DNA from: a virus
Lineage: Duplodnaviria > Caudoviricetes
Length of the DNA stretch: 55,238 nucleotides
Strand: one strand, 5' to 3'
IMG/VR virus record: IMGVR_UViG_3300043436_001540
Location: 1 to 55,238 of that record
A program made the position numbers and the translations under genes. A model generated the notes under the pieces. It searched no databases. It was not told the origin of the DNA and saw only the letters and a program-made list of their open reading frames with translations. Positions 510 to 13,002 of the stretch are shown here, one piece after another (position 1 is the stretch's first letter; each line of letters starts with the position of its first letter).

Positions 510-585
510 TGGCGACCTGTACCGGGATCGAACCGGTGTTCTTCTGCGTGACAGGCAGACGTATTAACCGCTTTACCAACAGGCC
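510..585 (-). tRNA. tRNA-Asp(GTC)
   Basis: Cloverleaf, TCTGC-CTGTCAC-GCAGA, CCA. Confidence 0.93.
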
Positions 586-590
586 ATATT

Positions 591-666
591 TGGTGGACCC
601 TAGGAGGATCGAACTCCTGACCTCCTGCTTGCAAGGCAGGCGCTCTCCCAGCTGAGCTAAGAGCCC
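591..666 (-). tRNA. tRNA-Ala(TGC)
   Basis: Cloverleaf, CCTGC-CTTGCAA-GCAGG, CCA. Confidence 0.93.
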
Positions 667-740
667 GAAAATGTATATGTGGAAGGCGACGATATCTTCC
701 ACGGTTTTACCTTGACTAGCAAGTCTGCGCCCGTATATAA

Positions 741-805
741 CAGGATCGTTTTGTCCGCTAAGACTATCATAACATTTTAGCGTTTTGGTTTGCTGAACCG
801 ATCCT
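741..805 (-). ncRNA. Y-RNA-like small RNA copy 1 (terminal stem + CAGCA, single inner hairpin)
   Basis: AGGATCGGTTCAGCAA...CGCTAA/TTAGCG hairpin...AACGATCCTG; termini shared with three other copies. Confidence 0.65.
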
Positions 806-811
806 AAATTA

Positions 812-899
812 TGGCGGAAGAGGTGAGATTCGAACTCACGGAACGTTTCCGTTCGGCAGTTTTCAAGACTGCAGGCATAAACCACTCGCCCACTCTTCC
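812..899 (-). tRNA. tRNA-Ser(TGA)
   Basis: Cloverleaf with long variable arm, GCAGT-CTTGAAA-ACTGC, CCA. Confidence 0.93.
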
Positions 900-997
900 G
901 TATCTTTGCCACTCTACACCCTTGTGGCGGGTCTCCTAGCTATCTATAACTCGTATTAAGCCCGAGGTTTCGCAATGTCTAGGACGTTGGCTTTTGT

Positions 998-1085
998 TTT
1001 AGACTGGGCTGTTTGCAGCTTTGACCTGCCGGCGATGACGGATCAGGGACACCTTCACAAGAGGTGATTACTTCTACAGTCTAAA
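998..1085 (-). ncRNA. candidate structured RNA (multi-hairpin junction)
   Basis: 9-bp closing stem TTTAGACTG/CAGTCTAAA enclosing several short hairpins, between tRNA genes. Confidence 0.4.
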
Positions 1086-1087
1086 CT

Positions 1088-1163
1088 TGGTTGCGGTGGG
1101 GAGGACTCGAACCTCCGATCTCATGGTTATGAGCCATGCAAGATGCCTCTTCTCTACCCCGCA
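1088..1163 (-). tRNA. tRNA-Met(CAT), initiator-like acceptor stem
   Basis: TGCGGGG...CCGCAACCA, CATGG-CTCATAA-CCATG. Confidence 0.85.
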
Positions 1164-1171
1164 ATAATATT

Positions 1172-1247
1172 TGGCTCCCTGACCAGGGCTCGAACCTGGG
1201 ACATTCTGATTAACAGTCAGACGCTCTACCAACTGAGCTATCAGGAA
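1172..1247 (-). tRNA. tRNA-Asn(GTT)
   Basis: Cloverleaf, TCTGA-CTGTTAA-TCAGA, CCA. Confidence 0.93.
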
Positions 1248-1253
1248 ACTATC

Positions 1254-1341
1254 TCTGTTTACACATACACCCCAGCGCATTGCGTGTTTCAGTAAAGTTT
1301 GGGTGGCCGACCCTCGTTTACGGGATGTATGTGAAAACAGA
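1254..1341 (-). ncRNA. long-stem leader RNA, class 2 copy A
   Basis: TCTGTTTTCACATAC...GTATGTGTAAACAGA stem with T-T mismatch; same terminal motif as 6693-6800. Confidence 0.5.
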
Positions 1342-1368
1342 AATTATTTCATTCTGTTTCTTGTTGAA

Positions 1369-1434
1369 TTGTCAAAGAGCAATGGTGTTTTTCACCGTAT
1401 ATATTATATATAAACCATTCTCTGCAAATGTCAA
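1369..1434 (-). promoter_or_regulatory. sigma70-type promoter followed by boxB-like hairpin and rrn-type boxA
   Basis: TTGACA at 1434-1429, AT-rich -10, GGTG-AAAAA-CACC hairpin, TGCTCTTTGACAA at 1381-1369. Confidence 0.65.
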
Positions 1435-1443
1435 CACTTTTTT

Positions 1444-1890
1444 TTATTCACACCACGACTTTTTTGCATCACCGTAGTATTCGCGAGCATAACCTTTTTC
1501 GATTAGCATCTTAGTCAAACTTTGACCATCAATCAATACATCACCGAGTACTCTGCCGCCAAATTTATCCCATTGATAGAGATTAATCTGGGTTGTTTTT
1601 GCGTTTGCAACAAGATCCTTTGTGAATTTGCTTGCAGCCGCACCTAGTTCGGCTTCCTTCTCGCATGAAGCACGACCACCTTTTTCCGGTGTATCAACAC
1701 CCCAAACACGGATAGATAGTTTCTTGGGAAGTGGATCAATTAAGAATGGTGCTTCAATCTCAACAGTATCACCATCTACCACACGAAGGATTTTAAAATC
1801 GTGGATAACACCTTCCGGCTTTTTAACTTCGGCATATGCAACTGAGGCAGTGGCAATGATGAGCGATAGGGTTAATAATAGTTTCTTCAT
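1444..1890 (-). CDS. thermonuclease (SNase-like) with signal peptide
   Basis: RVVDGDT, IRVWGVDTPE and DKFGGRVLG motifs; N-terminal hydrophobic signal. Confidence 0.9.
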   Translation of the reverse strand: MKKLLLTLSLIIATASVAYAEVKKPEGVIHDFKILRVVDGDTVEIEAPFLIDPLPKKLSIRVWGVDTPEKGGRASCEKEAELGAAASKFTKDLVANAKTTQINLYQWDKFGGRVLGDVLIDGQSLTKMLIEKGYAREYYGDAKKSWCE

Positions 1891-1915
1891 AGTATTCTCC
1901 TAACTAATGTTAGAA

Positions 1916-1923
1916 TATTTATA
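1916..1923 (-). promoter_or_regulatory. T4-type late promoter
   Basis: TATAAATA upstream of the SNase gene. Confidence 0.7.
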
Positions 1924-1930
1924 CTAAAAA

Positions 1931-2040
1931 CAGGTTGGTTTTTAGTTTGTTGATCTACCATTGATCTATCCACGCAAGGAGCGTCGAATGGGACTCGAAC
2001 CCATAACGTACAAATTATGTACTTTTGCTGAACCCAACCT
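1931..2040 (-). ncRNA. YrlA-like Y RNA copy 2 (permuted tRNA-like domain T-acceptor-D)
   Basis: AGGTTGGGTTCAGCAA...ATGGGTTCGAGTCCCAT (T arm), closed acceptor-like hairpin, TAGATCAATGGTAGATC (D arm)...AACCAACCTG; immediately downstream of the Ro-like gene. Confidence 0.75.
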
Positions 2041-2063
2041 AAATTCTTTGTAGTAGCTACGCC

Positions 2064-3494
2064 TTAGTAGGCGTAGCGATCGTTCATAAGAGTCTTCACC
2101 ATTACATTGTAAGGAGTGAAGTCTTCAAGGTCGTTCGCAAGAACGCTCTTCATGATGGCTGGGCTGAACCCAGATACATGAGCAGTACCACGCTCGTCGA
2201 AACGAACTGGAGTGTTGCCATCTGCTTTACCGTACATGGAAACGTTCCAGAAGACAATCTTCGGCACATTGTAGCCTGCATCGTTGTACTTACGCTTGAT
2301 CATCTGCATAGCAGAGTCATCATACTTAGTGCAAGAGTCAAACTGCATGTCAGACAGAATCAACAGCATCTGAGGCATGTCACTCTCTGCAACGTTACCC
2401 TTGATAGCGACCTTGAGGATCTCATCAAAAGCAGCGTGCAGATTGGTATTCATCTGCCACTCAGCACGGCTCATCTGAGTCATCTTCTGAGACAGAGTCC
2501 CTTTCAGATGTTCAAACTTAGGCTTACCGGAGAAGGTCAGGAACAGATCCTTAAACGCACTGGTGTTCTTATCAGCACAATACAGACCCAGAGAGACTGC
2601 AATGTCGATAGGCTGCAATTCACTTCCACGAGTGTAGTGAACAGAACCCATAGAACCGGAGACGTCGACCATAGGCATGATCTTAGCATCGCCGATGTAG
2701 TTAGGCAGAGCCTTCCACTGTTCATCAGCAACAGCTGCATTACCCTTCACGACAGACTTCACGACATCGTACGGATAGACCGCACCAGCGTTGATCTTGA
2801 CCTTGGGATCTGCACGCTCAGCAACCGGCTTTTTCAGTTCAGCAATGTAAGCAGAGTATGCTTCCTTTGCGTTACGGCCGAAAGCCTTCTGGTAGCGAGC
2901 GGATGCCACGGAAGGAACGTGAGAGAAGTTGATAGCTTCCCACTCTTTAGCACACATCTTAGACTCAACAACGTTGGTCAAACTAACGATGAGCTTACGA
3001 TACTGTTTCGGAGTAAGTTCAAAGAACTTAGTCAATTCAACAGCAACTGGACCTTTACGTGGCATCCACTTCGCACAGAGACCGTCCTGGTTTGCTAGCG
3101 CTTCACGAATAAACGCAAACGCCTTACGACGGTTGAGAGGATCTTTGTAAGTGAACAAGTCATCCCAACGGCCAAGCTCTGGAACTTTGTGCATCAGCTT
3201 ACCAGCAAGAGTTGGGTCGGTGGACTCAAGCGCAGCAAGCAAGTTACGGAAGGTAGCACGTTCGCCAGCACCTCCGCGAATGTCACGAGCCCAGAGCAGC
3301 ATACGGATAGTCAGATCAAGGTTCTCAGTCATAGAAGCTACGAACTGCTTGGAGATATCAGAACCACGAGCGGAACCAATAACACCGAACAAGTCGAGCA
3401 CCTTGGACTTAGAAGTAGCATTCGCCTTCATACCATTTGCGGTACGAGCAGGCTTAGAGTTGTTAGCATTTTTAACTGCGTTTACAAAAGACAT
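2064..3494 (-). CDS. Ro60/TROVE-related vWA-domain protein (DUF2828-type)
   Basis: N-terminal RDIRGGAGER, ELGRWDDL and AKWMPR motifs; C-terminal vWA MIDAS DVSGSM...ILSDMQFD, IVFWNV, VSGFSP. Confidence 0.85.
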   Translation of the reverse strand: MSFVNAVKNANNSKPARTANGMKANATSKSKVLDLFGVIGSARGSDISKQFVASMTENLDLTIRMLLWARDIRGGAGERATFRNLLAALESTDPTLAGKLMHKVPELGRWDDLFTYKDPLNRRKAFAFIREALANQDGLCAKWMPRKGPVAVELTKFFELTPKQYRKLIVSLTNVVESKMCAKEWEAINFSHVPSVASARYQKAFGRNAKEAYSAYIAELKKPVAERADPKVKINAGAVYPYDVVKSVVKGNAAVADEQWKALPNYIGDAKIMPMVDVSGSMGSVHYTRGSELQPIDIAVSLGLYCADKNTSAFKDLFLTFSGKPKFEHLKGTLSQKMTQMSRAEWQMNTNLHAAFDEILKVAIKGNVAESDMPQMLLILSDMQFDSCTKYDDSAMQMIKRKYNDAGYNVPKIVFWNVSMYGKADGNTPVRFDERGTAHVSGFSPAIMKSVLANDLEDFTPYNVMVKTLMNDRYAY

Positions 3495-3506
3495 AATATT
3501 TCCTTT

Positions 3507-3593
3507 CAGGTTGGATTTACGGATTCGAACCGTTAAGTTTGTTTTTCATACAAATTGGGAACCATTCCCGGGTTTAGTTGCTGAAACCAACCT
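3507..3593 (-). ncRNA. Y-RNA-like copy 3 (D-like, anticodon-GAA-like and T arms)
   Basis: AGGTTGGTTTCAGCAA...GGGAATGGTTCCC, TTTGT-ATGAAAA-ACAAA, ACGGTTCGAATCCGT...TCCAACCTG; no CCA; abuts the RBS of the Ro-like gene. Confidence 0.7.
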
Positions 3594-3611
3594 ATGGTTT
3601 CATAGTTTAAT

Positions 3612-3687
3612 CAGGATCGCGCCTTTCGGCTTTCCGTTTGATTACAAGTCAAATGCTCTATGAGCTTTAAGATGCTGTAACGATCCT
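3612..3687 (-). ncRNA. Y-RNA-like copy 4 (D-like arm, Thr-TGT anticodon arm, GAAA hairpin)
   Basis: AGGATCGTTACAGCA...GCTCATAGAGC, TTTGA-CTTGTAA-TCAAA, GCCGAAAGGC...CGATCCTG. Confidence 0.7.
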
Positions 3688-3755
3688 ATATTACTTCGTT
3701 CACATCGAATAATAGTAGTATAATACATAAAGAAACAGATGTCAACAATTATTTT

Positions 3756-3829
3756 TGGATGCCCGTCGAGGATTCGAACCGCGATTACTAGGGTCAGAGC
3801 CTAGCGTCCTACCGTTAGACGAACGGGCA
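3756..3829 (-). tRNA. tRNA-Gln(CTG)
   Basis: CTAGG-CTCTGAC-CCTAG, CCA. Confidence 0.9.
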
Positions 3830-3836
3830 ACATATT

Positions 3837-3922
3837 TGGCGGATGGAGTAGGAATTGAACCCACGACACGAATGCCGGACTTGCTTTCCAAGCAAGGTAT
3901 ATCACCAGATATTCCACCATCC
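3837..3922 (-). tRNA. tRNA-Ser(GGA)
   Basis: CTTGC-TTGGAAA-GCAAG, long variable arm, CCA. Confidence 0.85.
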
Positions 3923-3926
3923 ATAT

Positions 3927-4003
3927 TGGTGTCCTTGGGGAGACTCGAACTCCCAACACCTACGACCTCAACGTAGTGACTCTACCAGTTGGCCTACAAG
4001 GAC
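3927..4003 (-). tRNA. tRNA-Leu(GAG), short variable loop
   Basis: CTACG-TTGAGGT-CGTAG, CCA. Confidence 0.85.
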
Positions 4004-4008
4004 ATATT

Positions 4009-4083
4009 TGGAGCGGAGAATGGGATTTGAACCCACGGCCGTCTGCTTGGCAAGCAGAAGCTCTACCACTGAGCTACCTCCGC
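4009..4083 (-). tRNA. tRNA-Gly(GCC)
   Basis: TCTGC-TTGCCAA-GCAGA, TCCA end. Confidence 0.92.
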
Positions 4084-4088
4084 ATTAT

Positions 4089-4163
4089 TGGTACTGGATA
4101 GTGGGATCGAACCACGTCCACCTCAGTCACAGTGAGGGATGCAACCATTACACCTTATCCAGC
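4089..4163 (-). tRNA. tRNA-His(GTG), no G-1, A73
   Basis: CCTCA-CTGTGAC-TGAGG, 3' end ATCCAGT-A-CCA. Confidence 0.9.
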
Positions 4164-4169
4164 ATTATT

Positions 4170-4245
4170 TGGTGCTCCCGGTAGGACTCTAACCTACAAC
4201 CATTGGTTTCGAAGACCAGCGCTCTTACAATTGAGCTACGGAAGC
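4170..4245 (-). tRNA. tRNA-Arg(TCG), non-canonical D/T loops
   Basis: TGGT-CTTCGAA-ACCA; T loop TTAGAGT; CCA. Confidence 0.8.
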
Positions 4246-4249
4246 GTAA

Positions 4250-4388
4250 TTCCCGGGCCATCTCACAATTGGGACTCTTACCCCTACATCCGAGCTAAGA
4301 CTCAGACCGTGTTACCCGATACGCCGAGTAGCCCTGTGGCGTATGCAGTATTCTCATCATAGCAAATGTCGACCTTCGCTACAACGTT
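4250..4388 (-). ncRNA. candidate structured RNA between two tRNA-Arg genes
   Basis: Consecutive hairpins CGTTGTAGCGAA/TTTGCTATGATG, ATACGCC/GGCGTAT, TCTGAG/CTCGGA; no convincing ORF. Confidence 0.4.
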
Positions 4389-4392
4389 TAAT

Positions 4393-4465
4393 TGGCGCTC
4401 CTGGAATGAGTTGAACATTCGTAAGCAGGCTTCGTAGACCCGCCACCGGGTCCGCCGGCAGAAGC
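4393..4465 (-). tRNA. tRNA-Arg(ACG), atypical D arm
   Basis: CGGGT-CTACGAA-GCCTG, GTTCAAC T loop, CCA. Confidence 0.75.
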
Positions 4466-4466
4466 A

Positions 4467-4772
4467 TTATGGCATATAAAGACCTTCGATTTCTGGATCA
4501 GTGATCATTTCAGGCATATCATCGATCCATACATCGATGTCGATCTTGTGAACATGATGCATAAAGTGTCGCTTAGGGCGAAGACCAGTACCAAAGCAAT
4601 TCTCTGCACCGATCACTCGGCCGATCGTCATCTTTGGATCATCCATGTGCTGAGTTCCACGAGCGGATACGCAGTAGACTTTATGTCCACGGTTCAACGC
4701 TTCTTGTGCGAACCAGTTCCACAGGAGAGGATCTTTGGTGTAAGTATCGTCATAGTCAATTGAGATGTTCAT
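4467..4772 (-). CDS. small HAD-superfamily phosphatase-like protein
   Basis: IDYDDTYT motif I, VSAR motif II, WIDD motif IV; AAGGAG RBS. Confidence 0.8.
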   Translation of the reverse strand: MNISIDYDDTYTKDPLLWNWFAQEALNRGHKVYCVSARGTQHMDDPKMTIGRVIGAENCFGTGLRPKRHFMHHVHKIDIDVWIDDMPEMITDPEIEGLYMP

Positions 4773-4827
4773 CTTTGTCTCCTTTACACCATCATAGTCT
4801 AAGCTGTTCCACATGTAAACCTCTAAA

Positions 4828-4901
4828 TGGTGCTGCTAGGAAGAATCGAACTTCCGTCTCACCCGTACCAAGGGCGTGTATTACCATTGTACTATAGCAG
4901 C
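4828..4901 (-). tRNA. tRNA-Thr(GGT)
   Basis: CGCCC-TTGGTAC-GGGTG, CCA. Confidence 0.9.
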
Positions 4902-4906
4902 GTTGT

Positions 4907-4981
4907 TGGTGCCTCCACTAAGAGTCGAACTTAGACCTTCCCCATGTCACGGGATCGAGCAAACCGTTACACCATGGAGGC
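4907..4981 (-). tRNA. tRNA-Val(GAC)
   Basis: Anticodon loop GTGACAT, GTTCGACT T arm, CCA. Confidence 0.8.
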
Positions 4982-4987
4982 ATTGAT

Positions 4988-5064
4988 TGGTATCCCCAGC
5001 GGGTGTCGATCCCGCTTCTTCGCCTTGAAAGGGCGATGATCTAGCCAACGTAATCTATGGGGAC
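4988..5064 (-). tRNA. tRNA-Glu(TTC)
   Basis: TCGCC-CTTTCAA-GGCGA, CCA. Confidence 0.88.
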
Positions 5065-5071
5065 GTTATAT

Positions 5072-5155
5072 TGGTGGGAGTGAAGGGAATCGAACCCAAC
5101 ATAAGTTTCCTCGACGGAGTTACAGTCCGCTGCCTCACCTTGAGGCGGCACTCCC
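5072..5155 (-). tRNA. tRNA-Tyr(GTA)
   Basis: GCGGA-CTGTAAC-TCCGT, long variable arm, CCA. Confidence 0.88.
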
Positions 5156-5160
5156 AATAT

Positions 5161-5234
5161 TGGTCCCTTCTACAGGTAACGATCCTGTGTCTAACGGTTA
5201 TCAGCCGTTTGCTCTACCTTTGAGCTAAGAAGGG
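5161..5234 (-). tRNA. tRNA-Ile(GAT)
   Basis: AACGG-CTGATAA-CCGTT, CCA. Confidence 0.88.
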
Positions 5235-5290
5235 ATAACTAAATTTCAGCCGGAAATTCTTTTAATGTGCAGCCGGATCTGTCACAAACT

Positions 5291-5366
5291 TGGTGCGGAT
5301 GAAGAGAATTGAACTCCTGACACCATGCTCTTCAGGCACGTGCTCTACCAACTGAGCTACATCCGC
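5291..5366 (-). tRNA. tRNA-Phe(GAA)
   Basis: CGTGC-CTGAAGA-GCATG, CCA. Confidence 0.9.
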
Positions 5367-5435
5367 ATTGGTGGTGTGGGTAGTTGTAGAACCTGGTATG
5401 GAAGATAGTCAAAATCAATTTGACGATCACAACCA

Positions 5436-5597
5436 TTAACACCAGATTAACGACTTAACATTTTTTGCTGCTCTGGCTATAACAATATCAGGATCCCAAT
5501 ATGTGTGCCATCCTAGTCTTTTTTGAAAATTGTAATCTTCCATAAGGTAATAGGAAGAACCCAATGCCAGAGCAGCCTGTCTAATAACTTCTTCCAT
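5436..5597 (-). CDS. small hypothetical protein (53 aa, MEEVIRQAAL...)
   Basis: Open frame fills the inter-tRNA gap, GAGA RBS; below the ORF-track cutoff. Confidence 0.45.
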   Translation of the reverse strand: MEEVIRQAALALGSSYYLMEDYNFQKRLGWHTYWDPDIVIARAAKNVKSLIWC

Positions 5598-5624
5598 TGT
5601 ATTTTCTCATAATAGAGTTAAATT

Positions 5625-5745
5625 TGGTGGATTGTGAAGGAATCGAACCTCCGAGCCGCCGGCGCTTGTTCAAGTACCATACTTAATGGGAATCGAACCC
5701 CCCACAGTCGCGCCCTGTGCCTGGTTTGCCAGGTCAGTGTATCAT
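5625..5745 (-). ncRNA. tRNA-like RNA with two T-arms and CCA end
   Basis: GTGGGGGTTCGATTCCCAT and GGAGGTTCGATTCCTTC...TCCACCA; no anticodon arm. Confidence 0.55.
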
Positions 5746-5753
5746 CAAAGTAA

Positions 5754-5829
5754 TGGTGGATCCGGTCGGACTCGAACCGACGTACTCCGATTAAAAGTCG
5801 GGTGCTACGACCACCTCAGCTACGGATCC
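5754..5829 (-). tRNA. tRNA-Lys(TTT)
   Basis: CCCGA-CTTTTAA-TCGGA, CCA. Confidence 0.92.
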
Positions 5830-5962
5830 AATCTCGAAGCGCCATTCTCTCATCACGGCGTTCCGCTTTCTTAGTCTTTCCATGCGCGCCTGATGGACGT
5901 TTGGAAAGATGAAGGACGAATGGGTTTCGTGCCTTCGGTAGGTCCTTATGTTTTCGTTTCAT
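5816..5962 (-). CDS. small basic protein (48 aa, MKRKHKDLPKARNPFVLHLSKRPSGAHGKTKKAERR...); stop inside tRNA-Lys
   Basis: Strong AAGGAAAAGGA RBS, directly downstream of a promoter; TGA at 5818-5816 within tRNA-Lys. Confidence 0.65.
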   Translation of the reverse strand: MKRKHKDLPKARNPFVLHLSKRPSGAHGKTKKAERRDERMALRDWIRS

Positions 5963-5988
5963 TTCCTTTTCCTTTATTTCCTACATTA

Positions 5989-6032
5989 TCAACATATATC
6001 ATTTAAAAACATATGTCAACAACTATTTTTGG
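5989..6032 (-). repeat. 44-bp exact direct repeat carrying a sigma70 promoter (copy 1)
   Basis: TTGACA-17-TATGTT; identical to 6893-6936. Confidence 0.85.
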
Positions 6033-6107
6033 AGGTGTGGGTGAGATTCGAACTCACGACTTTATGGATTTGCAATCCATTCCCTTAGGCCACTCGAGCA
6101 CCACACC
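6030..6107 (-). tRNA. tRNA-Cys(GCA)
   Basis: ATGGA-TTGCAAA-TCCAT, TCCA end. Confidence 0.9.
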
Positions 6108-6126
6108 ATTTGATATAAATATCATT

Positions 6127-6615
6127 ATGTTTAGATTTGCAATTATACTACTTTTGTGCGGATGTACATCAGTAATAAAATCACAATCGTCTGACGATCC
6201 ACAACCTGTGGATACTGCCGTCAAACTTGACGGCCTCGATGAAAAGTATCACCGCACACAGATTAAAGAATTGATTGGTGTTGACCCTAGGCAATACGAA
6301 TGGTGTGCTGCCTTTGTCAACTCTATTCTTGAACTCCATGACATTCCAGGATCGGAATCAGTAAGTGATCACCCTCTTCTTGCAAGAGGTTTCTTGAATT
6401 GGGGTGTTCCAACCGACCAACCTGAATATGGCGATATTGTTGTTTTAACACGTGGTCGAGCTGGATGGCAGGGCCACGTTGGATTCTATATTGACACAGT
6501 CGTTATAGATGGTGTAGAAAAGATACTTGTTCTTGGAGGTAATCAAAACAATCAAGTTGGTTTTGATGCATATAATGCCAGTCGGTTGTTAGGTTACCGA
6601 AAGATACCTCAGTAA
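6127..6615 (+). CDS. TIGR02594-family NlpC/P60/CHAP-like cell-wall hydrolase, lipoprotein signal
   Basis: WCAAFVN, GDIVV, GHVGF and LGGNQ motifs; MFRFAIILLLCGC; TATAAATA at 6114-6121. Confidence 0.85.
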   Translation: MFRFAIILLLCGCTSVIKSQSSDDPQPVDTAVKLDGLDEKYHRTQIKELIGVDPRQYEWCAAFVNSILELHDIPGSESVSDHPLLARGFLNWGVPTDQPEYGDIVVLTRGRAGWQGHVGFYIDTVVIDGVEKILVLGGNQNNQVGFDAYNASRLLGYRKIPQ

Positions 6616-6616
6616 T

Positions 6617-6691
6617 TGGTTGGGAGGGGTGGATTCGAACCACCGGCCTGCTGATTCAAAGTCAGTTATTCTGCCGCTGAACTACCTCCCA
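6617..6691 (-). tRNA. tRNA-Gln(TTG)
   Basis: ACTGA-CTTTGAA-TCAGC, CCA. Confidence 0.88.
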
Positions 6692-6692
6692 A

Positions 6693-6800
6693 AACTCTAT
6701 TTACAGCTAAGGTCGTCATCCATGACTATCTGCTGCAGCAACCCGGGCCCGCGAAGCCCAGCACGGAATCGAACCGTAAACCCTAGTTGAAAACAGAGTT
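6693..6800 (-). ncRNA. long-stem RNA class 2 copy B with permuted T/D tRNA-like module
   Basis: CTCTGTTTTCAACTAGGGT...ACCTTAGCTGTAAATAGAG stem enclosing ACGGTTCGATTCCGT and GTCATGGATGAC. Confidence 0.6.
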
Positions 6801-6845
6801 AACTGTTTCCAGTCCATCATCGCTTACGCTAGGACAATTTCTAAA

Positions 6846-6858
6846 TTTTCAATGAGCG
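6846..6858 (-). promoter_or_regulatory. boxA-like element
   Basis: CGCTCATTGAAAA following a GGGAA/TTCCC hairpin just downstream of a promoter. Confidence 0.45.
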
Positions 6859-6892
6859 TGGGAAGATTGATACGATCTCTTCGTTCCCTATG

Positions 6893-6936
6893 TCAACATA
6901 TATCATTTAAAAACATATGTCAACAACTATTTTTGG
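6893..6936 (-). repeat. 44-bp exact direct repeat carrying a sigma70 promoter (copy 2)
   Basis: Identical to 5989-6032. Confidence 0.85.
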
Positions 6937-7004
6937 TAGTGCCAGTAAGAGTTGAACTTACTCGTCGGGCTTATGAGACCCAAGTCGGAACCGTCCGTGT
7001 CACC
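6934..7004 (-). tRNA. tRNA(CAT) Met/Ile2, minimal D arm
   Basis: TGGGT-CTCATAA-GCCCG, GTTCAACT T loop, CCA; only 71 nt. Confidence 0.7.
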
Positions 7005-7007
7005 ATG

Positions 7008-7044
7008 AAAAAACCCTCCGAAGATTTCTCTTGGAGGGCTTTCT
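7008..7044 (-). terminator. intrinsic terminator of the putative attenuator
   Basis: AAAGCCCTCCAAGA-GAAA-TCTTCGGAGGGTTTTTT. Confidence 0.85.
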
Positions 7045-7068
7045 TAAAGTGACTTTTAAAAATCTACT

Positions 7069-7158
7069 TTACATAAAGCCTCCGCGTGCCATCGCATAAC
7101 CCTCGCGTGAAGGATTAATGAGTTGGCTAAACTGTGTATGTTTACATACGAGTTGCAT
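7069..7158 (-). CDS. 29-aa leader peptide MQLVCKHTQFSQLINPSREGYAMARGGFM (putative attenuator)
   Basis: AAGGA RBS, promoter upstream, terminator ~25 nt after the stop, GGAGGCTTT complementary to the terminator 5' arm. Confidence 0.65.
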   Translation of the reverse strand: MQLVCKHTQFSQLINPSREGYAMARGGFM

Positions 7159-7193
7159 TGAGGTTCCTTGAATAGGTGTTGGTTATATGAGTA

Positions 7194-7222
7194 TATTTAT
7201 ACTATGTTCTATCAGATGTCAA
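7194..7222 (-). promoter_or_regulatory. overlapping sigma70 -35 and T4 late promoter
   Basis: TTGACA at 7222-7217, TATAAATA at 7201-7194. Confidence 0.7.
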
Positions 7223-7239
7223 CAAAAAAGTTGCGATTA

Positions 7240-7668
7240 TCAAAAACTTTTTAACATCCAACGATGTTTTTCGTGAGCAGTGATACGATCCTCAAGGAAG
7301 TTGACTACGCCAAACTGACCTAGCTGATCGGCAAGAGAACGAACCTGATACAATGCTGTAATAACAATATCGTTGTCACGAGCAAGACGGGCAAACATCA
7401 ATAGAGGTTCTGGAATCATAAGTTCATCTTCGATTCGGCTCAACTCTTGAAAGCGAGTCAATGAACCAGGAGCGAATGATCCAACGACACGAATCATCTC
7501 TGCAATCGGATCAATGGAACCACCAACTTCTTCATAAAACTCACCGAAGAATTCGTGATACTGTGCAAAGTTTGGCCCAGTCACATTCCAATGGTAGTTT
7601 TGTGCTTTAATAGAAAGTCCATAGACTGTTCCAAGTAGTACTTTGAGTGCTTCTGCAAGTTGTTCCAT
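7240..7668 (-). CDS. dps: Dps/ferritin-like DNA protection protein
   Basis: NYHWNVTGPNF-x-QYHEFF, D-x-IAE and EKHRWML motifs; late promoter at 7696-7703. Confidence 0.92.
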   Translation of the reverse strand: MEQLAEALKVLLGTVYGLSIKAQNYHWNVTGPNFAQYHEFFGEFYEEVGGSIDPIAEMIRVVGSFAPGSLTRFQELSRIEDELMIPEPLLMFARLARDNDIVITALYQVRSLADQLGQFGVVNFLEDRITAHEKHRWMLKSF

Positions 7669-7706
7669 GATACTCTCTTATGGTTGTTGTATCAGTATTT
7701 ATAATA

Positions 7707-7728
7707 TGGTGCTCCCGGTAGGACTCGA
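7707..7728 (-). repeat. duplicated 3' end of tRNA(CAT) (att-like direct repeat)
   Basis: 22-bp TCGAGTCCTACCGGGAGCACCA identical to 8456-8477. Confidence 0.8.
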
Positions 7729-7738
7729 TTATTTTATA

Positions 7739-8422
7739 TCAATCAAAATCTATACCGAATGCAATACTCACACGAGTAAATCCAGGTTTGGCCGTAGGGC
7801 TGACCATATGCGGCAACCAACAAGGAAAAAATACCAAAGTCCCTTCTTTAGGTGTAACACAAATAGGATTACCAAAGAAAGGATACCGCTGCACATTATC
7901 TTTCATAACGACAGGCGTCTTTGCAAAATGAATTGGATCAAGAAAAGTCAAGTCTCCTGGCGAAGGTTGACTAGCTGACTTGATAAGAACTCCCTCATCT
8001 AAGTTCTGTTTATCTGAGATGTTTTCATTCTCATACCAACCACTTGAAGGAAAATATACCCCCGCAATCATTTCTTTAGCTTTATGCGCATGTGGCATAT
8101 GATACCCATAAGGATTATCATCTATATTGCCCCAGAAAACCTTAGAGTTTGGTACACCATTAATACCAAAGAAATCATTGCCGACATCTTTAAAGATGGC
8201 GTCAATCGTTCTTTTTAAAGCAGCGAAACTCTCATAGTGATTTTCTAGATAGCCATTAGTCTGCCCAACACCTACACCTGAACGATCGCCGTTCAAATTT
8301 TGCTCTGCTTCTACCATAAGATCGGCAAGTAAAGAACGATTTAGACTTCTAGAATCCTCACCCAACGACATATACATTATCGGATTAGGAAAGGCTTGCA
8401 TTTTACCAATTTTCATATCCAT
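7739..8422 (-). CDS. putative 2OG-Fe(II) oxygenase (TIGR02466-like)
   Basis: HMPHAH, GVYF, PKEGTLVFFPCWLPHMV and RVSIAF motifs. Confidence 0.85.
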   Translation of the reverse strand: MDMKIGKMQAFPNPIMYMSLGEDSRSLNRSLLADLMVEAEQNLNGDRSGVGVGQTNGYLENHYESFAALKRTIDAIFKDVGNDFFGINGVPNSKVFWGNIDDNPYGYHMPHAHKAKEMIAGVYFPSSGWYENENISDKQNLDEGVLIKSASQPSPGDLTFLDPIHFAKTPVVMKDNVQRYPFFGNPICVTPKEGTLVFFPCWLPHMVSPTAKPGFTRVSIAFGIDFD

Positions 8423-8455
8423 GAATTCAATCCTATAATAATTTTAGGTATTTGT

Positions 8456-8531
8456 TGGTGCTCCCGGTAGGACTCGAACCTACGATCAAGACGTTATGAG
8501 CGTCCGGCTTTAGCCGCTAAGCTACAAGAGC
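8456..8531 (-). tRNA. tRNA(CAT), probably Ile2
   Basis: GGACG-CTCATAA-CGTCT, CCA. Confidence 0.88.
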
Positions 8532-8535
8532 AAAT

Positions 8536-8626
8536 TGGTAGAAGTGGGTGGATTCGAACCACCTCAAAGGCGCTAATCTGGCGCAAAGAGTTTATAAGAC
8601 TCCTCTGACTACCAAGTCTCACTTCC
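8536..8626 (-). tRNA. tRNA-Ile(TAT) with long variable arm
   Basis: GGAGT-CTTATAA-ACTCT, GCGC/GCGC variable stem, GGTTCGAATCC, CCA. Confidence 0.8.
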
Positions 8627-8627
8627 G

Positions 8628-8780
8628 TTATTTGCTACTCAGTTGTTTAATACGCTGTTTCATCCAATCTATGACAGCTACCCAACCCTCGTCTTGATAT
8701 GTAATATCTACGACTTGTAGATTAGCTAATGCGATATTTAAACCTGCAAGTTCTGTATAGTCGAGACTGGATTTAGCCAT
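8628..8780 (-). CDS. small hypothetical protein
   Basis: GGGAG RBS before MAKSSLDY. Confidence 0.6.
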   Translation of the reverse strand: MAKSSLDYTELAGLNIALANLQVVDITYQDEGWVAVIDWMKQRIKQLSSK

Positions 8781-8798
8781 TATAACTCCCTGAGATTT

Positions 8799-8874
8799 TG
8801 GTGTCCCCGGTCGGACTCGAACCGACACTACGCAGATTTTAAGTCTGCTGACTCTACCTTTGGCCTACGAGGAC
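8799..8874 (-). tRNA. tRNA-Leu(TAA), short variable loop
   Basis: GCAGA-CTTAAAA-TCTGC, CCA. Confidence 0.88.
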
Positions 8875-8880
8875 TAAATT

Positions 8881-8957
8881 TGGTGCTCCCGGAAGGACTC
8901 GAACCCTCAACCTTGACATTAGAAGTGTCTTGCTCTGTCCAGTTGAGCTACGGAAGC
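8881..8957 (-). tRNA. tRNA-Arg(TCT)
   Basis: AGACA-CTTCTAA-TGTCA region, CCA. Confidence 0.9.
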
Positions 8958-8963
8958 AATGTC

Positions 8964-9341
8964 TTATTTATAAAAGTCAAACGAATAAGTTTGACCATTC
9001 TGCTTAAAAGTAATGGTGCTGTGCGAATAAACCTCCGATCTCTCTGTTACGTAGGTTATTTCTTCCCAGCACTTACGACCCGCTTTATCTGCACCGATCA
9101 CGCCACCAAGTACGGCTCCAGCCGCAGCACCTTGATCATCTCCGGTAAGACCTTTACCGAGTAGACCACCGATGATCATTCCTTCGAGAGCGCCCTGTCC
9201 TGCATTACCTTGCCGGCAATAAGTCTGCGTGATCGGTGTCTCAATGTTTTGCAACTTGTAATGATCTTTGACGGTCGCGCGAACAGTTTCTGCAGAAGCA
9301 GATGTCGCAAACAGTAGTGCAATAGCTATAACAGTTTTCAT
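8964..9341 (-). CDS. glycine-zipper exported protein
   Basis: Signal peptide and GMIIGGLLG...GAAAGAVLGGVIG. Confidence 0.75.
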   Translation of the reverse strand: MKTVIAIALLFATSASAETVRATVKDHYKLQNIETPITQTYCRQGNAGQGALEGMIIGGLLGKGLTGDDQGAAAGAVLGGVIGADKAGRKCWEEITYVTERSEVYSHSTITFKQNGQTYSFDFYK

Positions 9342-9541
9342 TTAAATACCTTAATAAAACCTAGTATAACTAATGCAATCAATCCAATAGCAAGAACGAT
9401 TGCTAGCGGACCCCACAACGGTGAGAGAACCCACCACCACGACCACGCAATGTAGTCGGTTAATTTTAAGGTAATGAATACAATGGCCAATAGACCGAAG
9501 AACCCAATGCCACCTGATTGTGTTTGAGTATTATTTGCCAT
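9338..9541 (-). CDS. small membrane protein
   Basis: Two hydrophobic segments, IAWSWWWVLSPLW. Confidence 0.75.
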   Translation of the reverse strand: MANNTQTQSGGIGFFGLLAIVFITLKLTDYIAWSWWWVLSPLWGPLAIVLAIGLIALVILGFIKVFK

Positions 9542-9747
9542 TAGCTCAACCTTTCATTCCAAAATGCTTCATACATTTCTTTATCAGTTTTCCAGCGAGG
9601 GCGAACTGCAACAGGAGAATCATAAAGACCAACACGCTCAATGAACGCGCCGACCTCTTTATCAATTGCCTTCTCAAAGTCTGATTTGATAGGCTGGGCA
9701 TTGACCCGGCGTATCTCATCTACAACTGAGTCGTGATCGGTATTCAT
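9541..9747 (-). CDS. hypothetical protein
   Basis: ORF coupled to both neighbours (likely start MNTDHDS). Confidence 0.55.
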   Translation of the reverse strand: MNTDHDSVVDEIRRVNAQPIKSDFEKAIDKEVGAFIERVGLYDSPVAVRPRWKTDKEMYEAFWNERLS

Positions 9748-9962
9748 ACATTCCACTCCGATTGTTTTTCGATAGCCCAACGTGCACCGTGAATATAATC
9801 TTTATCTTCGTCTGATAGAATCGACCAGTATACGCTGATTGAACGAATCTGCGCTTCCACCTTATCAGGATCTGACAGATGTTCCTGGGACTCAAGCATA
9901 ATCTGCAGAGCATTTAGACGCTCATCGACGCGCTCAAAGATCATGTCTTTCACAACAGCCAT
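9744..9962 (-). CDS. hypothetical protein
   Basis: AGGAG RBS before MAVVKD. Confidence 0.65.
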   Translation of the reverse strand: MAVVKDMIFERVDERLNALQIMLESQEHLSDPDKVEAQIRSISVYWSILSDEDKDYIHGARWAIEKQSEWNV

Positions 9963-10020
9963 AGTAATAACTCCTATATGTTTCATGCGACTATATTCTA
10001 TTTATTCTATAGAATAGATC

Positions 10021-10209
10021 TTAGTCACATTCAACCATATCATTCTGCATTTGTACGATCATTTGCAACTCAATACGTTCGGCTACCTCTTCGTAATTTT
10101 CGATAGTCGAAAGAATTTCCCACTTGAGGCGCTCAAGATCATAGCCGAACCGATCAGATCGGCGAAGAAGATTCCGAAGAGACTTGGTAACTTCGAGATA
10201 TTCCTGCAT
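10021..10209 (-). CDS. hypothetical protein
   Basis: AAGGA RBS; downstream of a TTGACA promoter near 10261. Confidence 0.65.
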   Translation of the reverse strand: MQEYLEVTKSLRNLLRRSDRFGYDLERLKWEILSTIENYEEVAERIELQMIVQMQNDMVECD

Positions 10210-10262
10210 AATGTATCCTTTTCATTCCCTACATAAGTAATATAATCACTACTACGGAAATG

Positions 10263-10496
10263 TCAACCCTTTTTGCTAAATTTTTTCGTCTTTTTAATAG
10301 AAGCCTCAGTTCGCTTCCATCTTGCCCAGGCTTCTTCAACTTTGTAACGATATGCTACGTTCCATTGTTTGGAAAGACTTGACCAGGATTGGATTACAAG
10401 GGTTTTTGTTTGGATATTTTGTGCAAGGCGCAGGATAGTCCCATCGCCGATCCGGATTTCATCCAGAATGTCGTATTCTACTGCAAAGAAACTCAT
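10263..10496 (-). CDS. hypothetical protein
   Basis: ORF with GAGG RBS. Confidence 0.6.
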   Translation of the reverse strand: MSFFAVEYDILDEIRIGDGTILRLAQNIQTKTLVIQSWSSLSKQWNVAYRYKVEEAWARWKRTEASIKKTKKFSKKG

Positions 10497-10621
10497 TTTG
10501 CATCGTCCTCAGTTACTTCCTCGATGAATTCAATGAGTTGATCTAGCATAAACATGACTTCATCGTCAGGTAAAGCCAAAATTGCCTCAATGCTCGAAGT
10601 TTGGATCTCAAGATCTTGCAT
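10493..10621 (-). CDS. small acidic hypothetical protein
   Basis: AAAGGA RBS, ATGA overlap with the next ORF. Confidence 0.5.
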   Translation of the reverse strand: MQDLEIQTSSIEAILALPDDEVMFMLDQLIEFIEEVTEDDAK

Positions 10622-10684
10622 GGGGTGTCCTTTCATACCATAGTAGTACTATAACACACCTCGTAGCAGATGTCAACCACTTTT

Positions 10685-11116
10685 TTAAAGTAAAGTAGTC
10701 GGTGTCAGATGCTTTACATGGTTACGATGAACTTTTAGTCCTATAAAAGCATTGTAGTATTCATCCGGCCTTAACAGAACGTCACGATCGAATTGCTCTT
10801 TGGCTTCATAATAGCTCATCTCGGCTGTAGTTTTGCAAAACCTTAGAATTCTTCGTTCAAATCTAGTTTCACCGAACTCAAGTACTAGTCCTTTGAGTTC
10901 TTCACTTGATCCATAATAGTCATTCCAATCAGATTCAGTTATTACAGTTCGCTTACGCTTCTGACCTTTCAGAGGCGGCTTCATTCGTTTTGATATTAGC
11001 TTTTTCTTACCAATATACTTTTTACCATTCGCTGTATCAGTTATTTCATAGACAAATCCGATATGGTTACTATCTACATCTTCTGAAGAGAATGGTTTCT
11101 CTTCATAAAGCCACAT
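10685..11116 (-). CDS. GIY-YIG nuclease-family protein
   Basis: GFVYEITD...KKYIGKK, YYGSS, YYN. Confidence 0.8.
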   Translation of the reverse strand: MWLYEEKPFSSEDVDSNHIGFVYEITDTANGKKYIGKKKLISKRMKPPLKGQKRKRTVITESDWNDYYGSSEELKGLVLEFGETRFERRILRFCKTTAEMSYYEAKEQFDRDVLLRPDEYYNAFIGLKVHRNHVKHLTPTTLL

Positions 11117-11274
11117 TATTCGTCCTCTTCTAACTCTTCATCGAACTCGTCAAATGAATCACTGAATGTTACCTCTGTACCGCAATAAGGGCAAAAAGAT
11201 ACAATGTCCTCAACTTCGGATTCCACTGTGTATTCAGCGTCACAATATTCACAAATATGATCTTCTCTAAGCAT
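11116..11274 (-). CDS. small zinc-ribbon protein
   Basis: CEYC...CPYC with an acidic tail; GGGAG RBS. Confidence 0.7.
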   Translation of the reverse strand: MLREDHICEYCDAEYTVESEVEDIVSFCPYCGTEVTFSDSFDEFDEELEEDE

Positions 11275-11343
11275 TTAAATCTCCCAAATTAAAAGGCAGA
11301 AGGTTTCCCTCCTGCCTCTATTTATTCATCATTTGTACAGAGG

Positions 11344-13002
11344 TTATGCTTCGCACACAGCACACGACATAATATCACGAACTAATTCTTGTGCTGGATT
11401 GGCTGAGCGTTGATAATAGAATGTTTTGACGCCGAGTTTCCAACCCTCGATGATCAATGCATTCACATCTTTGGCCGATACATCTGGATGGATGAGAAGG
11501 TTCAATGACTGTGCTTGATCCACATACTTCTGTCGTGCTGCCGCTTGTTGTACAATAGACAGAGGAGTGATCTCTGAGAATGTTTTAAATACGTCCTTTT
11601 CATCCTGAGTTAGGAACTCGAGGTGTTGGACCGATCCGCCTCTTTTGAGGATTGATTCCCAAACATCGAACGTATTCTTTTCATGTGCTTCAAGTGTTTT
11701 TGTAAGATAAGGATTCTTGTAGGTGAATTTGCCCTTAGCAAGATCCTTTGTGAAGTAATTCGACGCGAGTGGTTCAATACTTGGAGATACTTGGCCAAGA
11801 ATAAAACTGCTAGAAGTAGTAGGGGCAATAGCGCAGCGTGTAAGATTTCGTATGCCATATCCGAGTAATCCTTCTGGTTCGCCATATTCAATTGCAAGTT
11901 CCTTGGTTGCAATCATAGACCGATCATCAATAAACTTGGAAATTTTAATGTTTTCCATGTGAGCCTGGAACGATTCAAAGGCAATCATCTTTGACTGAAG
12001 ATATGAATGCCAACCTAGAACACCAAGACCTAATGCTCTCCAACGTGTGGCAAAGTTATATGATGCTTCCATAAAAGCAATATCTTTTACCTTACCGATG
12101 TATTCTTCCATGACAGCATCAAGGAAATAAATCATGGTTTCCACAGCGTCAGTATTCTGCCACTCATCAAAAGTAACGGCATTCATAGACGCGAGGTTAC
12201 ATACAAACGATTCGTCAACAGAAGAAGGCAATGCAATTTCAGAGCAAAGATTGGAAGCCCAGATTTTACGATTTTTATCTTTCAGAACCTGAGGCTTATT
12301 GTTATTCACAGTATCAGTAAAGAACAAATATGGGTAACCAGACTCACGGCGCTTACGAAGAACTCTAGCCCAAATGGCTCTCTTTTCAGCATCACCTTCA
12401 ATCATTTGAGTCATAAACTTATCGGAGATGCAGACACCCATACTTAGGTTCTTGATTGATGAACCTTCCTCACGGCACTCAAGAAACTCCATAATATCTG
12501 GTGACTCAATGTCAATATAAACCGCCATTGATCCACGACGAACGTTACCTTGGCTGATAATGTCTACTGTAGTTTCAAACATATTAGCATAATGTACAGG
12601 GCCATCTGCCTTACCACCAGTTTTAATATCCGAACCACGAGGGCGAATGGCACCGATATACGCAGAGGTGCCGGCACCCATCTTAGTCTGCATACCGACT
12701 TCACCGACTTTATGCAGAATAGATTCTACCGAGTCGTCAATGAATACGCCATTACATGAGATAGGAAGACCTTTTTTGGTCCCAAAGTTACTCCAGACAG
12801 GTGATGATAGTGAATAGAATCCACGACTCATATAGTGATAGAACTTATCAGCAAACCCTTCAATGTCAAGAATGTTTTCGGCTGTCTTGGCAATCTCTCG
12901 TACTCGTTCCTCGGCGGTCATATTTCCATCAATGTAACCTCTTGATAGAAATGTTCTTGATTCTTCATTGGCCCACCACCAATTTTTGGTTGTATTAATC
13001 AT
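11344..13002 (-). CDS. nrdA: ribonucleotide reductase class I alpha subunit
   Basis: ISC, SNLCSEI, AIAPTTSSS, FYY and C-terminal CAVC. Confidence 0.95.
   Translation of the reverse strand: MINTTKNWWWANEESRTFLSRGYIDGNMTAEERVREIAKTAENILDIEGFADKFYHYMSRGFYSLSSPVWSNFGTKKGLPISCNGVFIDDSVESILHKVGEVGMQTKMGAGTSAYIGAIRPRGSDIKTGGKADGPVHYANMFETTVDIISQGNVRRGSMAVYIDIESPDIMEFLECREEGSSIKNLSMGVCISDKFMTQMIEGDAEKRAIWARVLRKRRESGYPYLFFTDTVNNNKPQVLKDKNRKIWASNLCSEIALPSSVDESFVCNLASMNAVTFDEWQNTDAVETMIYFLDAVMEEYIGKVKDIAFMEASYNFATRWRALGLGVLGWHSYLQSKMIAFESFQAHMENIKISKFIDDRSMIATKELAIEYGEPEGLLGYGIRNLTRCAIAPTTSSSFILGQVSPSIEPLASNYFTKDLAKGKFTYKNPYLTKTLEAHEKNTFDVWESILKRGGSVQHLEFLTQDEKDVFKTFSEITPLSIVQQAAARQKYVDQAQSLNLLIHPDVSAKDVNALIIEGWKLGVKTFYYQRSANPAQELVRDIMSCAVCEA

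Follow-up and report, generated by a model that had tools for sequence, protein, structure and literature searches.

A putative ribosome-dependent transcription attenuator before a phage tRNA gene

In enterobacteria, the amino-acid operons trp, his, phe, thr, leu and ilv are controlled by transcription attenuators built from a short ORF, a terminator and an antiterminator that has one strand in common with the terminator. T-box leaders, which do without an ORF, themselves bind uncharged tRNA, and the genes under their control are those for aminoacyl-tRNA synthetases and amino-acid genes. To our knowledge, hardly anything has been established about the control of phage tRNA expression, and old work on phage T5 reportedly drew attention to short ORFs that lie, with promoters and terminators, among the tRNA genes. 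The leader of Bacillus subtilis bmrCD is described as a ribosome-mediated attenuator that responds to general translation inhibition (PMC4191407), leader ORFs with Cys codons attenuate cysteine genes in Actinobacteria (bioRxiv 10.1101/834739, PMC1262725), and phage tRNA genes are viewed as adding a fixed amount to the host pool and as countering defences that cleave tRNA (PMC10264068, PMC11464382). A literature search, whose coverage was thin for older and subscription literature, found no description of leader-peptide attenuation of a phage tRNA gene, and we consider a leader-ORF attenuator in this position to be provisionally new.

The unit described here lies in a stretch of 55,238 nucleotides (the window), a 55-kb part of a viral contig that is estimated to be 32% complete, which corresponds to a genome of roughly 170 kb. 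The DNA runs containing the stretch are mostly freshwater and lake metagenomes. From comparison of sequences and from predicted folds, the unit is probably a ribosome-dependent transcription attenuator placed before a phage tRNA gene. Features of this class that were identified are an ORF between promoter and terminator, a terminator without an intervening promoter, mutually exclusive helices that covary, and an ORF end that is placed so that a ribosome could choose between them. The attenuator architecture is well supported by the comparison with relatives; we infer that the ORF is translated, that the ribosome is the agent that flips the RNA, and the direction of the regulation. If this is correct, at least one phage tRNA is produced as needed, depending on how well translation is proceeding.

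Layout of the leader unit

The initial annotation of the window had proposed a promoter, an AAGGA motif, a 29-codon ORF, a strong terminator and complementarity between GGAGGCUUU and AAAGCCCUCC. All of these are present, and all parts of the attenuator unit lie on the minus strand of the window. The promoter (7233-7194) consists of a T-rich upstream stretch, a -35 element TTGACA (7222-7217) and TATAAATA (7201-7194), with a predicted start near 7188. This motif has a single match in the window and none in 100 shuffles. It is missing from the list produced by a generic sigma-70 scan because its spacing and its -10 element fall outside the rules of that scan. TTGACA and TATAAATA are both invariant across an alignment of nine related units, and the same promoter motif was found upstream of permuted tmRNA genes called by ARAGORN in 4 of 8 other loci checked. 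The upstream neighbour of the promoter is a ferritin/Dps-like gene (7668-7240, minus strand; Pfam PF00210, E 3e-20), and no terminator was identified between this gene and the leader promoter.

The Shine-Dalgarno-like AAGGA (7169-7165) is located 6 nt before the ATG. Most relatives have an AAGGA- or AGGA-like motif, which in several of them is 11-14 nt from the ATG, a distance that is long for efficient initiation. The leader ORF (7158-7069) has 29 codons (7158-7072), including a single Cys codon at 7146-7144, and ends with TAA at 7071-7069. Codons 26-28 carry GGAGGCUUU (7083-7075), the putative 5' strand of the antiterminator, 12 nt before the stop codon. A spacer hairpin (7071-7045) begins at the stop codon and is enclosed by the antiterminator helix. 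The intrinsic terminator (7042-7008) comprises a 5' arm (7042-7029), a GAAA loop (7028-7025), a 3' arm (7024-7014) and a T6 tract (7013-7008), and part of its 5' arm (7042-7033) is the 3' strand of the antiterminator. Directly behind the attenuator, 3 nt after the T tract, is a non-canonical tRNA(CAU) with a compact D arm (7004-6934). A separate promoter-like site at 6923-6895 (TTGACA, 17 nt, TATGTT; 10 of 12 matches) lies outside the unit and limits what the unit can gate.

The terminator motif is unique in the window (one match, and none in 100 shuffles) and folds at -20.3 kcal/mol with all upstream sequence masked. The 196-nt transcript has more structure than expected from its shuffles (z -4.88), of which none among 200 is as stable. 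GGAGGCUUU (7083-7075) pairs with AAAG/CCUCC (7042-7039 and 7037-7033) with one bulged C, forming a duplex of -11.4 kcal/mol, and this helix closes the minimum-energy fold when the 3' arm of the terminator is withheld. A second stretch at about 7104-7098 (-34 to -26 from the stop codon) pairs about equally well with the same arm (-11.7 kcal/mol) and could act as an alternative antiterminator strand; it is held in a local hairpin in folds of the leader. Among dinucleotide shuffles of the leader, 7% hold a partner that is at least as good as the best one in the window (-11.7 kcal/mol). Given these shuffles and the second partner site, the pairing in the window is by itself weak evidence, and the case therefore rests on the relatives.

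We propose that the strong promoter would start a leader RNA of ~180 nt carrying a short translated ORF, the last codons of which (GGAGG plus 3-8 nt) could pair with the 5' arm of the terminator (CCCUCC plus flank). As long as this antiterminator helix stood, the terminator would be blocked and polymerase would enter the tRNA, 3-7 nt past the T tract. A ribosome at the end of the ORF would cover the 5' strand of the antiterminator, upon which the terminator would fold and transcription would stop. The commonly quoted footprint of the bacterial ribosome covers this strand when a ribosome terminates at the stop codon. With the ribosome absent, slow, or stalled more than ~15 nt upstream, the antiterminator would remain intact, leading to read-through, and output would be high when translation of the leader is poor. 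No upstream helix that sequesters the antiterminator strand before translation (a 1:2 or anti-antiterminator helix) was found in folds of the leader, so an untranslated leader would simply stay open. In several units, full-length folds have GGAGG paired with a CUC-rich stretch next to the start codon, and truncated folds form the antiterminator instead. It may be speculated that, as the GGAGG core is Shine-Dalgarno-like and the arm resembles the anti-Shine-Dalgarno sequence of 16S rRNA, a terminating ribosome might hold the strand by pairing with it.

Related units and the competing helices

The 381-nt unit has no match in 50,697 records of isolated phages, and a further comparison with isolated phages gave only tRNA and ribonucleotide-reductase matches and no close relative. 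The exact terminator gave no match in a collection of viral contigs from which the record of the window itself may be left out. Relatives were gathered by three routes, using the neighbouring Dps gene, the promoter motif and the terminator motif. The Dps route gave 29 loci encoding the neighbouring Dps protein, of which 14 were inspected; the unit follows Dps in five (L004-L007, L011) and not in nine. An association of the unit with the Dps gene was rejected; the unit goes with the tRNA. Through the promoter motif we obtained 56 loci, 13 of them with the terminator motif within 330 nt, and through the terminator motif at least 117 stretches.

The three routes combined identified ~22 distinct units in viral contigs with the order of parts seen in the window, and any frequencies among these units are biased because the loci were chosen by promoter and terminator motifs. 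Shared by them are the promoter, the AAGGA-like motif, an ATG-started ORF of 21-39 codons with a GGAGG or GAGGG core in its last codons, a spacer of 25-35 nt with one or two hairpins, the CCCUCC arm, mostly a GAAA loop, and a T tract, which is interrupted in two lineages (L076, L056). The distance of 25-35 nt from the stop codon to the 5' arm of the terminator, with one or two hairpins in between, holds in 20 of 20 units, as does the start of the antiterminator 5' strand 6-21 nt before the stop codon. A scan of bacterial contigs for counterparts (GGAGG, gap, terminator) gave at least 127 matches in at least 120 stretches, with ~90 matches expected by chance by a rough estimate. Among the matches listed, only two have a tRNA within 140 nt, and neither evidently belongs to the leader-unit family.

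When folded, the segment that starts 21 nt ahead of the stop codon and takes in the whole 5' arm closes the end of the ORF onto the CCUCC arm in all 20 units. In each of nine units, the truncated leader is predicted to form the antiterminator and the full leader the terminator. The consensus of the terminator (14 units) has 12 pairs, five with compensatory changes. The register of the antiterminator helix and its bulges differ between lineages in the MAFFT alignment, and covariation in this helix was judged by swapping partners. Across 17 lineages, the ORF end pairs with its own arm at a mean of -14.43 kcal/mol, compared with -11.30 kcal/mol for foreign arms. Permutations as good as the observed pairing numbered 0 of 50,000 for 17 lineages and 0 of 20,000 for 11 lineages; these lineages are homologous, so permutation and product probabilities overstate their independence. 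For 8 of the 17 lineages the own arm is the single best partner. The window and one relative (L105) differ on both sides of one antiterminator pair, and in general the flanks of the core vary between lineages and match within them. The antiterminator suggested in the initial annotation is thus conserved in relatives, both in the 20 folds and in the covariation detected by the swap.

As a control, we used 112 other viral terminators with the same arm, for which the duplex has a mean of -4.47 kcal/mol (sd 3.25). The value of the window is reached by 5.4% of these. Nine of the 112 fold in the manner of the antiterminator, and on inspection four of the nine are further members of the family. The antiterminator of the window is among the weakest of the family (-11.4 kcal/mol, compared with the mean of -14.4 kcal/mol). 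The GAGG core is found in all three codon phases across lineages, and it is therefore constrained as RNA rather than as Gly codons.

Translation of the leader and its possible signals

The leader ORF is open in all ~22 units, with a chance of 0.08-0.34 per unit by nucleotide shuffling at the observed length. Values of pN/pS in 11 pairwise comparisons of leader ORFs range from 0.39 to 1.25; such values are expected where the act of translation, and not its product, is important. Mean column identity in an alignment of 14 leader peptides is 30%, only Met1 and one Gly being invariant, and no Pfam family match was found for the leader peptide. A loose motif around Cys and an end rich in Gly are common to the peptides. 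The leaders of two close relatives are separated by an in-frame indel of one codon. An open frame that is kept while its peptide drifts, as appears to be the case here, is the usual signature of a regulatory leader ORF.

In the initial annotation, the leader was suggested to sense general tRNA shortage because its peptide uses 18 of the 20 amino acids. That count, with Asp and Trp missing, is accurate; the probability of such diversity is 0.019 given the composition of the phage proteome and 0.052 for ORFs from shuffled nucleotides, which puts it only marginally above chance. All 20 amino acids occur in two other leaders of 36-37 residues (P 0.003-0.008), and a further four or five reach P <=0.05 under at least one of the two nulls. 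Diversity is at or below expectation in at least four leaders, and is thus not a trait of the family. Of the codon-diverse ORF-terminator units that had been expected before tRNAs in related phages, the units themselves exist and have kept their pairing, and high diversity is seen in some of them. From its composition, the leader in the window is a possible sensor of general tRNA shortage. Met and Gln codons in the leaders look enriched about twofold.

The only codon type kept in all 22 distinct core leaders is Cys, present once or twice in each. In the 19 core units measured, its first occurrence is 21-63 nt ahead of the antiterminator strand, which is far enough for a ribosome stalled there to leave the strand free. 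One close relative has a Cys codon at a new position and has lost the old one. There are 13 Cys codons where 2.7 are expected from the composition of the proteome (p 5e-6); relative to ORFs from shuffled nucleotides 8.9 are expected, and the enrichment is mostly gone. Were the ten representatives independent, the chance of a Cys codon in all of them would be 0.006; being homologues, they are not. The kept Cys codon is a statistically weak hint that the leaders may sense Cys, which would make for a narrower sensor; tRNA-Cys is also the gene found most often downstream. A looser unit (L109) is located before tRNA-Phe and has two Phe codons and no Cys, which fits a rule of cognate codons and proves nothing.

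We offer, tentatively and with more doubt than confidence, the reading that the phage uses the leader as a test ORF to gauge the supply of usable aminoacyl-tRNA, and that its own tRNA would be turned on only when ribosomes falter. In what would be the ancestral and commonest form, the Cys codon would report on Cys-tRNA for a phage tRNA-Cys, and codon-diverse leaders, among them the two with all 20 amino acids, would be broad sensors of translation stress. If so, a tRNA-Cys gene would be regulated by the availability of its own product, and a broad sensor could be a response to host defences that cleave tRNA, or to a decaying tRNA pool in the host.

The downstream tRNA, rival readings and known systems

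The initial annotation placed tRNA genes after the terminator. A tRNA does follow, although it is not an ordinary one: only the tRNA(CAU) at 7004-6934 (71 nt) was identified there, and it is sub-threshold, with 23.7 bits in Rfam relative to a gathering score of 29. ARAGORN calls it only once the threshold has been reduced (-ps80). Its cloverleaf, compared among six homologues, has 23 pairs, of which 16 show compensatory changes; the copy in the window has one broken acceptor pair. The possibility that 7004-6934 is a degenerate copy of tRNA-Cys was rejected, as it belongs to this covarying tRNA(CAU) family. The next confident tRNA is tRNA-Gln at 6691, and the promoter-like site at 6923-6895 is just ahead of a conserved RNA element and this tRNA-Gln. 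The site is repeated at 6019-5991, as part of a repeat (6961-6893 and 6057-5989) that is 87% identical. The tRNA-Cys of the window (6107-6030) comes after the repeated 69-nt segment.

The claim that the unit gates the whole tRNA array could not be upheld. Four of the 25 tRNAs called by ARAGORN in the window are upstream of the unit (8957-8456), and downstream of it further promoter-like sites occur along the array at 6019, 5638, 4819 and 3745, in addition to that at 6923. Also against gating of an array is the presence of another promoter-like TTGACA site directly after the terminator in 4-5 related lineages (L070, L139, L161, L124/L192), where gating would be redundant. The T tract is followed by tRNA-Cys in 8-9 units, by the tRNA(CAU) type in six (the window included), by tRNA-Trp in one, and directly by a conserved RNA element of unknown function in two. 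As judged from this gene order, the unit in the window would gate one unusual tRNA(CAU) rather than the array, and most relatives would gate tRNA-Cys. In two lineages, tRNA-Cys is followed immediately by a tRNA with the anticodon CAU, and the arrangement in the window thus looks like the same operon without its tRNA-Cys.

In most units the tRNA begins 3-7 nt after the T tract, which leaves no room for a promoter of its own. An adjoining tRNA that apparently lacks its own promoter is the strongest circumstantial argument that read-through matters. In a count over 492 tRNAs, biased by the choice of loci through motifs, a hairpin-plus-T terminator no more than 45 nt upstream was found in 7 of 22 contexts of tRNA-Cys, in 2 of 34 of tRNA(CAU) and in one each of tRNA-Trp, tRNA-Phe and tRNA-Leu, and for no other tRNA. 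Four metatranscriptome runs held small shares of the window. One contig of 238 nt from an RNA library, 97% identical to the window, spans 7167-6942 and bridges the terminator, running from near the predicted start to near the 3' end of the tRNA. Other contigs from RNA runs are from more distant relatives or cover only the tRNA or Dps parts, and a lack of cover elsewhere carries no information. The 238-nt contig fits a read-through precursor, could equally derive from DNA in the library, and cannot define the ends of a transcript; we take it as a weak hint.

Some of the same observations would suit other readings. The mutually exclusive helices are the best-supported feature of the unit, and translation is something that we infer; thus the RNA could be a switch of two states that is flipped by a factor other than the ribosome (a protein of phage or host origin, a tRNA, a small RNA or temperature), for which the GGA-rich motifs close to either end of the ORF could provide protein-binding sites. 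The ORF would then be secondary, or would serve only to load ribosomes. This is unlikely, as it leaves unexplained an ATG-started frame that is open in every lineage, at a chance of 0.08-0.34 each, and a stop codon that lies, in 20 of 20 units, no further than ~20 nt from the antiterminator strand; moreover, no T-box or riboswitch family was matched. That the transcript is compact and strongly folded (z -4.88), has a promoter and a terminator to itself and lies among RNA genes might also suggest a small regulatory RNA of ~180 nt that ends at the terminator, the ORF being there by chance. Conservation of the ORF argues against this, the competing helix would be absent from the finished RNA, in which the terminator hairpin wins in 9 of 9 units, and a tRNA abutting the T tract needs read-through. 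We regard this as very unlikely.

A promoter, a Shine-Dalgarno motif, an ORF and a terminator also make up a complete gene, and the unit could be an ordinary gene for a small protein, with a non-regulatory complementarity between ORF end and arm and a tRNA made by constitutive leak-through. The loose peptide motif around Cys, the Gly-rich end, and the units followed by a promoter-like TTGACA site rather than a gene would all be consistent with this. However, the pN/pS values of 0.39-1.25 are far from those of a functional protein, no Pfam family was matched, the GAGG core in all three codon phases indicates constraint on RNA, and a protein cannot explain lineage-specific covariation of ORF end and arm, which makes the reading quite improbable. 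We give about the same low weight to a fixed and partly leaky insulating terminator that would end transcripts from the upstream Dps or tRNA genes and provide a constant low level of the next tRNA, with no sensing. Transcripts from upstream would indeed meet this terminator as well, given that none separates the Dps gene from the leader promoter, and the interrupted T tract in L076 and L056 suggests leakiness. An insulator would work without a dedicated strong promoter and ORF upstream and without a covarying competitor helix, and such a helix is missing in about 103-107 of the 112 other terminators with the same arm.

Read as a ribosome-dependent attenuator, the unit can be compared with the described systems. 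Like T-box leaders, it would use a choice between terminator and antiterminator to report on the state of the tRNA pool; the T-box covariance model gave no match at E <=1 over positions 1-12000 and none at E <=10 over 6640-7240. Nor is it a member of the Rfam families His_leader (RF00514; 19.8 bits, gathering score 49, E 0.81) or Phe_leader (RF01859; 18.5 bits, gathering score 55, E 1.9). The likeness to the enterobacterial attenuators is one of architecture: a short ORF lies close to the promoter, the first structural gene is preceded by an intrinsic terminator, one strand of that terminator also belongs to an antiterminator, and the stop codon is placed so that a ribosome that finishes the ORF would disfavour the antiterminator. 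Unlike these attenuators, the leader in the window has one Cys codon and no run of codons (1-2 Cys codons in relatives), an upstream 1:2 helix was not found, so that the untranslated state should read through, and the output would be a phage tRNA rather than biosynthetic enzymes.

As in the leaders of Actinobacteria, Cys codons in a short upstream ORF are proposed to be the sensor; the actinobacterial ones have Cys runs, are often leaderless and precede biosynthetic operons, whereas here there are one or two Cys codons and usually a tRNA-Cys downstream. With attenuators of the bmrCD type the unit shares a leader ORF and a terminator and, following the logic of the initial annotation, the use of stalling of any cause as the signal (PMC4191407). 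As described in that source, those attenuators respond to antibiotics and control bacterial genes for drug efflux and resistance, whereas the output here would be a component of translation.

A tRNA(CAU) family behind the leader terminator

The gene directly behind the leader terminator (6934-7004, minus strand) encodes a tRNA whose anticodon is CAU and whose D arm is compact. It belongs to a family with members in other contigs, including L059 (1577-1647), L140 (3431-3502), L172, L095 and L191. These genes are 71-72 nt long, with a D arm consisting of a 4-bp stem and a 4-5-nt loop, and a variable region of 3 nt. The window copy was not called by ARAGORN at default settings, its Rfam score falls below threshold and its acceptor stem contains one A-G mismatch. 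Compensatory changes were identified at 16 of the 23 cloverleaf pairs across six sequences of the family. Candidate identities for the window copy are Met, initiator or Ile2.

A conserved RNA-like element and other features of the tRNA region

A conserved RNA-like element of at least 100 nt (window ~6776-6890, perhaps extending to 6700, minus strand) separates the tRNA(CAU)/Cys genes from tRNA-Gln. It contains strongly conserved blocks as well as a 9-bp hairpin that is likewise conserved, and homologues occur in about 20 loci, including L082, L155, L056, L076, L096, L111, L145, L095, L140, L070 and L059. No Rfam match was found for the window element. In the window the element is preceded by its own promoter, and in L096 and L111 it is directly 3' of the leader terminator. 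The longer form (window, L044 and L155) has a T-arm-like motif further downstream.

Also within the tRNA region is a sub-threshold match to YrlA, a Y RNA-like RNA (1922-2025, minus strand; 33.2 bits versus a gathering score of 69). A 91-nt tRNA-Ile(UAU) call (8536-8626, minus strand) is also tRNA-Sec-like in Rfam (33.5 bits, below threshold). An ORF encoding a CHAP domain (6013-6615, plus strand; PF05257, E 1e-6) and a lipoprotein-like N-terminus sits mid-array, opposite in strand to the surrounding tRNA genes. Because its listed start overlaps tRNA-Cys, the true start is probably further inside.

The promoter motif and looser look-alikes elsewhere

In viral contigs, the promoter motif (TTGACA, 14-18 nt, TATAAATA) also lies immediately 5' of permuted tmRNA genes. 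ARAGORN called tmRNA* in four of eight motif-bearing loci checked (L035, L037, L041 and L047); the window yielded no tmRNA call. The same arrangement was seen by eye in L033, L053, L057, L060, L065, L075, L077, L079 and L087. L053 shares a single 195-kb contig with a leader unit, L051.

Three loci are candidate looser look-alikes of the leader unit ahead of other tRNAs. In L109 (236-434, minus strand), an ORF of 21 codons, two of them for Phe, has GGAGG close to its end and is followed by a terminator of the leader-unit type, with tRNA-Phe 31 nt further on. The putative look-alike in L245, a contig of a Leptospiraceae MAG, comprises an ORF of 42 codons, four of which encode Phe, and a terminator 36 nt upstream of tRNA-Phe. 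That in L175, a GC-rich viral contig (~3130-3452, plus strand), has an 18-codon ORF ahead of tRNA-Leu(UAA).

Possible displacement and form of tRNA-Cys

The window tRNA-Cys is at 6030-6107 (minus strand). A 69-nt direct repeat on this strand (6893-6961 and 5989-6057, 87% identical) spans a tRNA 3' end, CAU-type in the former copy and Cys in the latter, together with the TTGACA promoter that follows. The repeat suggests that a duplication or insertion shifted tRNA-Cys ~900 nt from the leader. In relatives, tRNA-Cys is found for example at L005:3707-3788, L007:3715-3796 and L044:459-540. ARAGORN gives lengths of 76-82 nt for the tRNA-Cys genes of these phages, so the variable region is enlarged in several of them, an uncommon feature for tRNA-Cys.
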